Below are positions 47,351 through 50,249 of a DNA stretch of 64,000 nucleotides, piece after piece. Source of the stretch: Candidatus Bathyarchaeota archaeon RBG_16_48_13 (lineage in GTDB: Archaea; Thermoproteota; Bathyarchaeia; RBG-16-48-13); assembly GCA_001775995.1 (NCBI GenBank), contig MEZH01000007.1:46934-110933 (forward strand), in the 5' to 3' direction. The first letter of the stretch is position 1; the number at the start of each line of letters is the position of its first letter. The notes under the pieces were generated by a model that was given only the letters and a program-made list of their open reading frames with translations, did no database searches and was not told the origin of the DNA. Both the position numbers and the translations under genes were made by a program.

Positions 47351-47450
47351 GGGCTGGTCGTCTAGTCTGGTTAGGATATCCGCCTGACAGACCTTTTCTA
47401 GGTCCAAGAGACGCGGAAGGTCGCCGGTCCGAATCCGGCCCGGCCCACCA
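47351..47450 (+). tRNA. tRNA-Val(GAC) with 22-nt intron and encoded CCA
   Basis: Acceptor stem GGGCTGG/CCGGCCC, anticodon stem TCCGC/GCGGA, spliced loop CTGACAC, T-arm GCCGG-TCCGAAT-CCGGC. Confidence 0.9.
47389..47410 (+). other. tRNA-Val intron, probably at position 36/37
   Basis: BHB geometry: CCTG/CAAG central helix (one mismatch), bulges ACA and AGA, intron helix GACCT/AGGTC; a 37/38 junction gives the same mature sequence but no central helix. Confidence 0.7.
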
Positions 47451-47662
47451 CTGTTAGGGCATAGAACCTCAATAATCTTACATGCCTAGACGAGACACTC
47501 CAAGCGCGCGCCACACCAATTGCTCGCTCATAGCCTAGCTTTAGATCTTGCCGGGAGTCTTGTTCATTGTTTTGACTTAAATTCACGTTGACCGGATTAT
47601 ACAGCAAACGTTTGGTCGAGATGCCAGGATTCATGTTCCGTAGGAATCCCTGAGGTGAAGAA

Positions 47663-48433
47663 ATGAGCTTTCAAGAGAGGATCAGACAGAAGAAGGGCAA
47701 AGAAAAGATCATAATGCTGACGGCCTACGACTTTCAGATGGCGAGAATACTGGCTCGGACTGGTATCGACTTGATCCTTGTGGGCGATAGTCTAGCGATG
47801 GTAGTGCAAGGCCGAAGCGACACCAAGAGCGTCACGATGTCTGACATGATATATCACATAAAGGCGGCAGCAAGAGGAGCTGAGAACACCCCCATCATCG
47901 GGGACTTGCCAAGGGACAGCTGCAACTCTGTGGAGGATGGCTTACGGAATGCCAAGCTGTTCATCAAGGCGGGTGCACATGGAGTCAAGATTGAGGGGAA
48001 GAAAGCGGAGGTCATAAAAGCCCTGGCAAGCGGGGGAATCCCGGTTATGGGCCATATTGGAATGCTTCCCCAGACTGCAGAATCCTACCACGTGAAGGGA
48101 AAAAAGCCCGAAGAGGCCGAACAGATCCTCCAAGACGCTCGAGCCCTGGACAGGCTCGGCGTGTTTTCCATGGTGCTGGAGTGCATCCCCGAAGACCTGG
48201 CAAAGATGATAACAGAAACCGTCGATGTGCCGACGATAGGCATCGGAGCGGGCAAATACTGTGACGGACAGGTGCTGGTCACGAATGACATGCTCGGTTT
48301 CGACGATGACTTCAAACCAAAATACGTGAAAGTATACGCCAACTTCAACAAAGCGACAAAGGATGCTGTTTCCAAGTTCATCGAAGAAGTCTTCGAAGGC
48401 AAGTTTCCCGACGATGAACACACCTACCATTGA
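47663..48433 (+). CDS. panB: 3-methyl-2-oxobutanoate hydroxymethyltransferase
   Basis: MLTAYD, ILVGDSL, GDLP, VKIEG, PVMGHIG.LPQ, VLECIP, TIGIGAG..CDGQVLV..DMLG. Confidence 0.93.
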   Translation: MSFQERIRQKKGKEKIIMLTAYDFQMARILARTGIDLILVGDSLAMVVQGRSDTKSVTMSDMIYHIKAAARGAENTPIIGDLPRDSCNSVEDGLRNAKLFIKAGAHGVKIEGKKAEVIKALASGGIPVMGHIGMLPQTAESYHVKGKKPEEAEQILQDARALDRLGVFSMVLECIPEDLAKMITETVDVPTIGIGAGKYCDGQVLVTNDMLGFDDDFKPKYVKVYANFNKATKDAVSKFIEEVFEGKFPDDEHTYH

Positions 48434-48891
48434 ATCCTAGAGAAAACGTTGGCGCCGCGAGCGCTCAACATGTCGTAGAGTCGCTCTCTGTCACCTCTCG
48501 AGGACGATCTATCGGTCGTAGGGTTAAGCGGTCAACGGGTTACACGATGTCCCTGATCTACATGAGCCTGCGATTCGCATATCTGCCCCAGCGTGAGGCT
48601 GGTCGCCCTCAATACCTTCAAACCAGAGACTTCGCCTTGATCGTGCGCCGGATAGGACTTGCACATTAGGTGCGGATAACGCGTGACCTGCCACGCATTT
48701 GATTTCAGTGTGATTAGGCACAGGAAGAAATGATTCACTCAAATGTTGAACTGAATACCTCCAGACCTGCTACATCATTTTGGCTTCTTGCCAGCAAATT
48801 GACGTCAAAACCGGTCCCGACGCCTTGGTTTGCGCTTCCTAGCCAATCCTAGCTACAGGTTTGCTGCAGACTCAGACCCTTCTGGGGTTTT

Positions 48892-48910
48892 AATCCGGCC
48901 CGGCCTACTA
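48892..48910 (+). repeat. Direct repeat of the tRNA-Val 3' end (attR-like)
   Basis: AATCCGGCCCGGCCtACtA versus tRNA 47432-47450 AATCCGGCCCGGCCCACCA: 14 nt exact, 17 of 19 overall. Confidence 0.7.
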
Positions 48911-49081
48911 TTCTTTCTGAAGGCGAGTTCTGGTGATTATCCTATACCCTTAGAAAGTTGATGACTTTTTCATCGGCTGTGGCCCTTAGGATCCCGTCCT
49001 TCATGGGCTTCCACTTGTAAGTCCCATTGTTTGATCAGGATTCGACTTGGTTTCTAGTTCTTGCCAATAATATCGGGTTAT

Positions 49082-49385
49082 AGGAGAAGGGATAACAAGG
49101 GATATCTAGGTGGGACAATCGTGGATAATCAGCGGTGATGATTGAGTCAATAGAGGATACCAAGGGATATTGAAGGACAATCAGTACCAAAGGGTCTTGC
49201 TGGTTTCTTGATAGCTGGCTTCGCTCAGACAACTAGTGTGTTGGAGCCTCTGCCAGGTGGTTGAGGCTCATCTGCCGAGGAATCGCAACCAACACTAAGC
49301 CCTGGATATCTTGGACTACGCTCATTGTCCCTTATGATAGCCATTCTGCGCGTCCCTGTTATCCCGCATTATCCCTTACTCCTCT
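49082..49385. repeat. Non-coding quasi-palindrome with convergent phased GGGAYA arrays
   Basis: Seven plus-strand NGGAYA copies (49089-49179) and four minus-strand copies (49326-49375); perfect 8-9-bp cross-matches; nested apical hairpins. Confidence 0.7.
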
Positions 49386-49719
49386 TATGCCATCGGCCAA
49401 CTTGGAGATGCGGCTTTCTCAATTTCCATTCTGCTTGTGGGATGCGAACTGAGCCGAATGGAGAATACATAGATGGGATTCGAGTTTCGTTCCAGCGCCT
49501 TATGTGCTTTCCGCGGAATAATTTCACCCGTTGGGAGTATTCTGGAAATTCTGAAAACGGGGAAGGCGGGACCTGAGGATCTTGACAGGCCCAATCAATC
49601 TGGCGTTAGAGGCATCCATTAATCTAGTAGTTCAAGATGATCGGGGAGACATGAGAAGAATCGAATCAGCACTCAACTTTCTAATTAGCTCCAGGAATGA
49701 CACCTGCTCCAAGACCCAC

Positions 49720-49905
49720 CTATATGACTCTGAGTCTCTGGATGCTGTGAGTTTGCCAAGAATAGTGGCGGAGCTTCTTGGAGGCACCATATCCGCAAGC
49801 GGAGCATTTCTTCTCTCTCTTGTGGTAGGAATGCCTCCCACACCGTCTACAGCGGATGTGCACAGTCTGGTTTTTCTTTCCGAAAGATGGCGTTCCCTTG
49901 CCCAT
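49720..49905 (-). CDS. rpl37e: 50S ribosomal protein L37e
   Basis: [32 protein letters not shown]. Confidence 0.95.
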
Positions 49906-49914
49906 GATCTAGAT

Positions 49915-50142
49915 TCACCTTGCAGGAGGCGATATTATTATTACGTTGTCCCCTCTGACGATTATGACGCCGAGCTTCTGGATGTTTTCAGTGTTCGAGA
50001 CATCCTCAGCGTCTTCCAAGACCAAGTTCATGTGTTGGTCGAAGGATTGAAGTTTCCCTCTGAGACTCTTTCCACCCTTCAGCCTTACCAGTACCTGTTT
50101 GCTGAGGCTTTCGTTCAGTATCTTTGTCGCCGCTTCGGTCAA
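49915..50142 (-). CDS. Sm-like (Lsm/SmAP1) protein
   Basis: VLVRLKGG..LRGKL.SFDQHMNLVLEDAE, IIVRGDNVI.ISP; conserved position upstream of rpl37e. Confidence 0.93.
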   Translation of the reverse strand: MTEAATKILNESLSKQVLVRLKGGKSLRGKLQSFDQHMNLVLEDAEDVSNTENIQKLGVIIVRGDNVIIISPPAR

Positions 50143-50249
50143 ATTCGATCAACCTTTGTTGGAGCTTGAACACATCCTGAACATCTATTGGGTGACCCCT
50201 TAATGATTTAAATCTATCGCGCTCCCTAAGGAGATGCCGGGAAGACAGT

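Follow-up and report, generated by a model that had tools for sequence, protein, structure and literature searches.

A phased quasi-palindrome of facing iteron arrays in a Bathyarchaeia genome, a likely docking site for a DNA-binding protein of an unannotated two-gene cassette

A 304-bp element at positions 49082-49385 of a 64,000-nucleotide stretch of archaeal DNA (the window, meaning the whole stretch that was analysed) is a quasi-palindrome made of two facing arrays of (G)GGAYAA boxes. The element is likely a double-stranded DNA docking platform for a sequence-specific DNA-binding protein, of the type found with a two-gene cassette, and not an RNA gene. Tracing the element in other genomes uncovers a recurrent and unannotated Bathyarchaeia module that consists of a phased iteron palindrome, a gene for a protein with a long coiled-coil tail (referred to here as CC) and a gene for a helical partner. 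The copy in the window is probably an orphan relic, lacking the cassette genes and lying within about 2.3 kb of DNA inserted between a tRNA-Val gene and rpl37e. The source genome (G000) is a Bathyarchaeia metagenome-assembled genome of 848 kb in 16 contigs that is 75% complete.

The left arm of the element (49087-49182, plus strand) carries seven (G)GGAYAA boxes in two groups, of four and three, with plus-strand GGAYA cores at 49090, 49100, 49113, 49123, 49155, 49165 and 49175 and spacings of 10, 13, 10, 32, 10 and 10. The right arm (49325-49385, minus strand) carries three boxes, at 49326, 49360 and 49370, together with a degenerate fourth at 49351. Between the arms lies a centre of 142 bp (49183-49324; 52% GC) with local hairpins at 49235-49297, 49245-49269 and 49276-49285 and one stray plus-strand GGAYA core at 49304; its GC content is 43% at the minimum over 30 bp, and it is not AT-rich. 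An earlier reading of these letters (the preliminary description) had listed plus-strand NGGAYA boxes from 49089 to 49174 with the same series of spacings, three perfect cross-pairs and the central hairpins, and all of these are present in the sequence as stated. Its four minus-strand boxes were recovered at 49326, 49360 and 49370, and the one at 49351 exists in the degenerate form GGGACG, which is not a GGAYA core.

The element holds 11 GGAYA boxes in 304 bp, compared with the 1.6±1.2 (maximum 7) expected from 5000 dinucleotide-preserving shuffles, and the Poisson expectation for stretches this dense in boxes is 1.7e-4 for the whole 848-kb assembly. It is the densest 300-bp interval of the assembly (11 boxes; runner-up 8; mean 1.2), the sole convergent GGAYA array within it, and present there once. 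The seven boxes of the left arm have a phase resultant of 0.86 at a 10.5-bp period. The density, by the shuffling check proposed in the preliminary description, and the phasing are both far above background. With about one helical turn between boxes, the sites within each arm all face the same side of the helix. Similarity between the two arms is limited to the boxes. Density, phasing, the single copy and the existence of homologues of about 300 bp together characterize the whole quasi-palindrome as an orphan cis-site of the GGGAYAA type.

A DNA-level search for the window element in 40 relatives returned no match. Look-alikes were also sought with a three-box pattern in 400 Bathyarchaeia genomes, which gave 17 matches against about 12 in the control and is therefore near the control rate; the whole architecture is found in two of these matches, in genomes G112 (L093:1462-1760; seven plus boxes facing nine minus boxes) and G020 (L101:1447-1745; six plus boxes facing five minus boxes). 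A third look-alike, in genome G292 (L247:828-1135), holds the 18-mer TTATCCCGCATTATCCCT that is identical to the right arm of the window element at 49359-49376. Only four elements of the GGGAYAA type are known, and the four share a length of about 300 bp, the (G)GGAYAA box and a similar series of spacings, the series of the G112 element (10, 13, 9, 10, 10, 35) being nearly that of the window. Their neighbourhoods are unrelated and non-syntenic. On the matter of copy number raised by the preliminary description, the element is single-copy in its own genome and has look-alikes of about 300 bp in three other Bathyarchaeia genomes. The centres of the G112 and G020 elements are about 60 bp long with 38-39% GC (20-23% GC over 30 bp), and compared with these the centre of the window element is about twice as long and less AT-rich.

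Two further box clusters have a different layout. One (L096:1497-1550, G132:C121) consists of four tandem 12-bp units, each with GGGATAA, that form direct repeats unlike the facing arrays and lie directly upstream of an ORF of about 55 aa that looks winged-helix-like by eye. The other (L098:1500-1540, G392:C4) has four GGGACAAT boxes at 10-bp spacing with no facing array, within 700 bp of A-rich non-coding DNA that precedes a gene for an ATP-dependent DNA ligase.

A CC gene lies beside each of the three look-alikes, intact in one case (G112) and decayed in two (G020 and G292). In G112 the start codon of a 596-aa CC protein, which has close relatives at 86-90% identity, is about 10 bp from the nearest box, and the gene is followed by a 178-aa ORF. 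In G020 the N-terminal region of CC beside the element is a pseudogene (tblastx 2e-7, in-frame stops), followed by a tRNA-like stretch and then by a truncated DNA ligase gene. The CC homologue of G292, 340 bp from the element, is truncated to about 150 aa. Beside the tRNA-like stretch and the decayed CC gene of G020, the DNA ligase gene survives only as two C-terminal fragments (L231:4067-4900, G020:C203), which suggests a disrupted or rearranged locus.

The intact cassette consists of two genes. The first encodes CC, a protein of 400-620 aa whose compact helical head is HTH-like and whose long tail is a coiled coil, and the second is a helical ORF of 150-180 aa that follows CC in all five intact loci checked. 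The conserved N-terminal region of CC, of about 215 aa, retrieves 389 representative clusters at E<=1e-3, and these carry only generic coiled-coil protein names in the source databases. No Pfam, PHROG or PDB-sequence match beyond coiled-coil noise was obtained for CC, no enzymatic domain was detected by Pfam, and a search of the ESM Atlas yielded no usable match. The gene is sporadically distributed: within one family 3 of 59 genomes carry it, and among fairly complete Bathyarchaeia genomes 11 of 201 do, with two copies in several genomes, and it was not found in a sample of 300 further genomes of the phylum. Neither was the CC protein found in IMG/VR, nor the CC head in PLSDB (tblastn, 72,556 plasmids). 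The neighbours of the cassettes are ordinary chromosomal genes and toxin-antitoxin pairs; no integrase, Rep-type, helicase, primase, polymerase or NTPase gene is found beside the cassettes examined, and no NTPase or ribbon-helix-helix family is represented among the cassette genes or their neighbours. In the source assembly, at its 75% completeness, and in the flanks of the element no CC gene or relic was detected by tblastn or by profile, and because of this the window element is linked to the cassettes solely through the homology of the sites.

Distant CC homologues (22-29% identity) mostly have arrays of their own, with 10-11-bp spacing and a position just upstream of the start codon, and several of these loci also have an inverted distal set of boxes and an AT-rich centre. 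At L233, GGGGCCAA boxes are followed by an AT-rich stretch (35% GC) and then by complementary boxes that extend into the start of the ORF. L234 has seven copies of GTGGGCA plus an inverted distal pair, and L235 and L236 have six copies of AAAGTAAC with spacings of 11, 11, 31, 11 and 31 and, some 180 bp upstream, a pair in inverted orientation. Nine copies of GACTCA together with inverted copies are found at L250, GGGATCG facing its complement at L253, five copies of CATGTGA at L246 and six copies of TGATCCT at L243. The arrays abut the start codon in G112, at L233-L236 and at others. The CC genes of L244 and L249 have no clear array upstream. A repeated-8-mer statistic has a median of 6.5 upstream of CC against 5 in gene-body controls, and scores of at least 7 were obtained for 8 of 14 upstream loci against 2 of 37 controls, the loci not being independent of each other.

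The wording of the box follows the protein that it accompanies. The orthologous cassettes of G302 and G322 have the same box, and the heads of the three GGGAYAA-associated CC proteins are 37-42% identical to each other compared with 26-29% to other CC heads. A KLYTRG stretch after the HTH-like helix pair is common only to these three heads. At the level of sequence comparison, box wording and CC protein therefore co-vary, since the distant CC homologues carry differently worded arrays of their own.

What the four GGGAYAA elements have in common is the box together with its orientation and helical phasing, the features that selection would be expected to maintain in a DNA site bound by a protein. 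The preliminary description had also offered a structured, sponge-like non-coding RNA with repeated GGA motifs, which would be a transcript of about 300 nt folded into a long hairpin with GGGAUAA/UUAUCCC arms and possibly acting as a protein sponge. When folded, the window, G112 and G020 elements do form long hairpins, of a stability slightly above that of shuffled sequences (z -1.7 to -2.9), the values for the window element itself being modest (z -1.7 on the plus strand and -2.1 on the minus strand), and TATA-like AT stretches can be seen by eye just upstream of the window and G020 copies. Against this, the RNAalifold consensus of the four homologues amounts to -5.6 kcal/mol and 15 pairs, essentially one helix of box on inverted box, and the apical three-way junction is found in the window copy only. 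The arms are complementary only at the boxes, and Rfam gives no family for the element: at E<=10 the interval 48400-49700 yields only a chance snoRNA match that lies outside it. The G112 array ends about 10 bp short of the start codon and nothing promoter-like lies outside it, and the arrays of L246 and L254 were detected in one orientation only and therefore cannot form a hairpin. The covariation and Rfam checks called for by the preliminary description hence turn out against its RNA option, which is very unlikely. The reading as a DNA docking platform is preferred because no RNA fold is common to the four look-alikes and the similarity of their arms is confined to the boxes. SRP RNA and RNase P RNA, candidates suggested by the rod shape and the GGAA-looped apical helix, were both found elsewhere on contig C7.

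The head of CC was modelled in AlphaFold from a 79-sequence alignment, and residues 1-120 form seven helices at a pLDDT of 93. A Foldseek search with this model gave nothing at E<=0.001. The top row in VIA-align was the HTH region of Spo0J/ParB (Z 6.8, 60 residues, rmsd 4.8), followed by KorB (Z 5.3, 54 residues, rmsd 2.5), a ParB-parS complex (Z 4.8) and DnaA domain IV (Z 4.8-4.9), with unrelated helical proteins interspersed. All of these weak matches score below what is safe for helical models and within the range that helical proteins may attain by chance. A Pfam match of the head to MerR_1 is weak (E 0.008) and below the cut-off. A 260-residue model of CC was of low confidence, and its structure matches are meaningless. 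The predicted head fits an HTH reader of DNA.

The first option of the preliminary description, a protein bound to one face of the helix on both arms, is supported by the homologous elements and by the analogous arrays in front of CC genes. By analogy with known systems, CC would be the binder. Each CC head would read one iteron on one face of the helix, the coiled-coil tails would oligomerize, and the two facing arrays would thereby be pulled across the centre into one higher-order nucleoprotein complex. The AT-rich centre of intact cassettes presumably holds the promoter, and CC binding would then shut off the cassette's own promoter, whereas the bound complex may in addition mark the DNA for stable keeping or anchoring. 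Three kinds of site had been named under this option. A centromere-like or operator-like site is the best fit, the canonical replication origin is excluded, and for transposon-type ends a target duplication and further copies are lacking.

Archaeal origins of the Orc1/Cdc6 type have ORB or mini-ORB boxes inverted around an AT-rich unwinding element and usually lie next to orc1/cdc6. The element is similar to these in that inverted boxes flank a centre, which is AT-rich in the homologues; it differs in that its box is unrelated to ORB and no orc1/cdc6 gene is near it (C7:96 kb). An AT-rich stretch between the inverted boxes is present in the homologues and absent from the window element, with its centre of 52% GC. 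The canonical origin of this genome is on contig C1, where classical ORB boxes, in which a G-string follows TTCCAGTGGAAA, and a tract rich in AT (G000:C1:~91300-92200) immediately precede orc1/cdc6 (C1:92204-93286); contig C4 carries a second orc1 gene. The GC skew of C7, another check named in the preliminary description, follows gene orientation and has no turn at the site.

The element could also be the origin of a small replicon that is, or formerly was, integrated, with the arrays flanking an unwinding region and CC acting as initiator or origin-binding factor. Such an origin would agree with the AT-rich DNA, about 60 bp in length (20-23% GC over 30 bp), that separates the inverted arrays of the homologues, with the weak resemblance of the CC head to DnaA domain IV, with a cassette that is sporadic, has its own specificity in each copy and occurs twice in some genomes, and with the location of the site within DNA inserted at a tRNA gene. 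It is nevertheless unlikely, as no helicase, primase, polymerase or Rep-type gene accompanies any cassette, the neighbours being ordinary chromosomal or toxin-antitoxin genes, CC has no enzymatic domain, the centre of the window element has 52% GC, the skew does not turn at the element, and no relatives were found in IMG/VR or PLSDB.

The element of the window lies in a gene-free gap that spans 48434-49719 (1286 bp). At its left edge is panB (47663-48433, plus strand; Pfam PF02548, E 5e-95) and at its right edge rpl37e (49720-49905, minus strand), beyond which follows the conserved Lsm gene (49915-50142, minus strand), the last two being identified by their translations and by tblastn to relatives. 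A 195-aa plus-strand ORF at 49582-50169 was discarded as a neighbour gene, since it is an antisense shadow of rpl37e and Lsm, and the matches that it seemed to have in 17 relatives are explained by reading the conserved Lsm gene on its opposite strand. The preliminary description had placed the site downstream of the Lsm-rpl37e transcript, and this placing is correct because the real genes are on the minus strand to the right of the gap. Synteny was also sought through panB in 68 metagenome loci and abandoned, as panB is not syntenic and there is no DNA similarity; no other gene of the window is beside panB in 42 related metagenome loci. Two other readings of the gap sequence were rejected. 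For a tRNA with a giant intron, ARAGORN finds none in the gap with introns up to 400 nt, and for a degraded coding sequence, the gap ORFs have no real Pfam match (at E<=1 only two chance matches, E about 0.1) and no tblastx relic appears against related loci.

An intron-bearing tRNA-Val gene is located to the left of panB (47351-47447, plus strand; local Rfam search, 48.7 bits, E 7e-10). It was overlooked by the Rfam gathering run over the whole window and by ARAGORN. A 78-aa ORF on the minus strand (47398-47634) that overlaps this gene is probably spurious. In one relative (L086) 19 bp separate the end of this tRNA from the stop codon of rpl37e, and tRNA genes are also present at this rpl37e junction in other relatives. 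The source genome has 2.27 kb between tRNA-Val and rpl37e, including panB and the element, that is absent from the junction of the relatives. A 14-nt direct copy of the 3′ end of tRNA-Val, which is att-like, is found at 48892-48905 (plus strand) as an exact repeat of 47432-47445; a repeat of the tRNA 3′ end that bounds inserted DNA is a feature of tRNA-targeting integrative elements. The tRNA-Val gene is thus a probable integration target that bounds the inserted DNA. From the tRNA gene, the 14-nt copy and the 2.27 kb absent in relatives it follows that the site is part of DNA that was acquired or rearranged at a hot spot formed by a tRNA gene. No match to the integrase family PF00589 is found anywhere in the assembly at E<=10.

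The 14-nt copy forms the end of a non-coding sequence of about 120 nt, element A (48785-48905, plus strand), which has paralogues on contig C14: one at C14:181-301 with 75-82% identity and a partial copy of 35 nt at C14:5976-6009. The indels between element A and its C14 paralogue are not multiples of three. Copies of element A may represent att flanks of a family of integrative elements. The C14 copies (L005, L006) bracket about 5.7 kb that contains N runs and in which a Cas1-like fragment and zinc-ribbon ORFs are recognizable by eye only. Elsewhere on this contig (G000:C14:9392-10826) there are IS200/IS605-type ORFs, TnpA-like and fragmented TnpB-like, as judged by eye from the ORF sequences.

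Multiple subterminal repeats that bind a transposase are present at the ends of Mu, Tn7 and IS21, and the element might accordingly be a miniature non-autonomous transposon, or solo transposon ends, with its boxes as transposase-binding sites. It would agree with the short repeats arrayed in inverted orientation, with a size conserved at about 300 bp, with positions that are non-syntenic across four genomes and with the insertion-prone tRNA region. This explanation is highly improbable, for there is one copy per assembly and no further copies, no convincing target-site duplication is visible by eye in the flanks of the window and G112 copies, and no transposase is nearby. In intact loci, moreover, the element is fixed before the start of the CC gene, as an operator would be.

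In its widest form the docking-platform reading would make the CC/partner pair and the facing arrays an archaeal system, not previously described, for keeping or anchoring DNA without an NTPase, composed of a site and its reader, with specificities that diversify as plasmid incompatibility determinants do, and of which the window element is a fossil; this is a tentative proposal that we regard as possible but doubtful. Bathyarchaeia are an abundant uncultivated sediment lineage, and to our knowledge the DNA partition and anchoring systems of Archaea are poorly known. If true, an NTPase-free cassette built like bacterial KfrA or the Par protein of pSK1 would widen the picture of archaeal partition and anchoring. 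The CC cassettes offer testable protein-DNA pairs with natural specificity variants. For annotation, phased arrays at 10-11-bp spacing in these genomes are best taken as a sign of a protein-docking site and not of an RNA gene or an origin.

Among known systems, the first to be compared is parC/ParR of plasmid R1, where tandem iterons about one helical turn apart are situated upstream of the operon and parC is split into two blocks with the promoter between them (PMC5016525). One dimer of the adaptor occupies each iteron, and the resulting complex acts as the centromere and as a repressor of the promoter (PMC5016525). The tubC/TubR site and the parS heptad arrays of omega proteins are grouped with R1 parC as similar iteron sites. 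The repeats of parC are direct, whereas the arrays of the element are facing, and systems of this kind use a small ribbon-helix-helix or winged-helix adaptor and a gene for an NTPase motor (ParM, TubZ or ParA). The arrangement of type II partition, with a ParM NTPase and a ParR adaptor beside the iterons, is not seen here, as no NTPase gene is beside any cassette.

A second comparison is with Par of pSK1, whose par site is a repeat cluster upstream of par. This protein, together with RacA and RocS, resembles the proposed design of CC in combining a DNA-binding head with a coiled coil and in having no adjoining gene for a dedicated NTPase. The three differ from CC in that no sequence relation to it is detectable and in that the CC cassette has a second gene. 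Par constitutes a single-protein plasmid partition system (PMC11500499).

A close parallel in design is KfrA of the broad-host-range plasmids RA3 and RK2/R751. KfrA is described as having an N-terminal HTH head and a long alpha-helical oligomerizing tail, as an autorepressor whose operator consists of five 9-bp repeats, and as pairing with a second alpha-helical protein, KfrC, and aiding the stable keeping of the plasmid (PMC7783346; PMC7821693). There are several differences. No KfrA Pfam family is detected in five CC proteins (one at E<=0.1, four at E<=0.01), CC hosts are archaea with the genes in chromosomal contexts and without ParA/ParB partners, and CC arrays come as two sets of 4-10 boxes that face each other from either side of a centre rather than as one set of five direct repeats. 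The window itself has no cassette genes, so that the combination of HTH-like head, alpha-helical tail and downstream alpha-helical partner occurs in the homologous cassettes and not in the window. In these homologous cassettes the likeness to KfrA/KfrC extends to the same gene order, the same protein design and a repeat array at the start of the gene.
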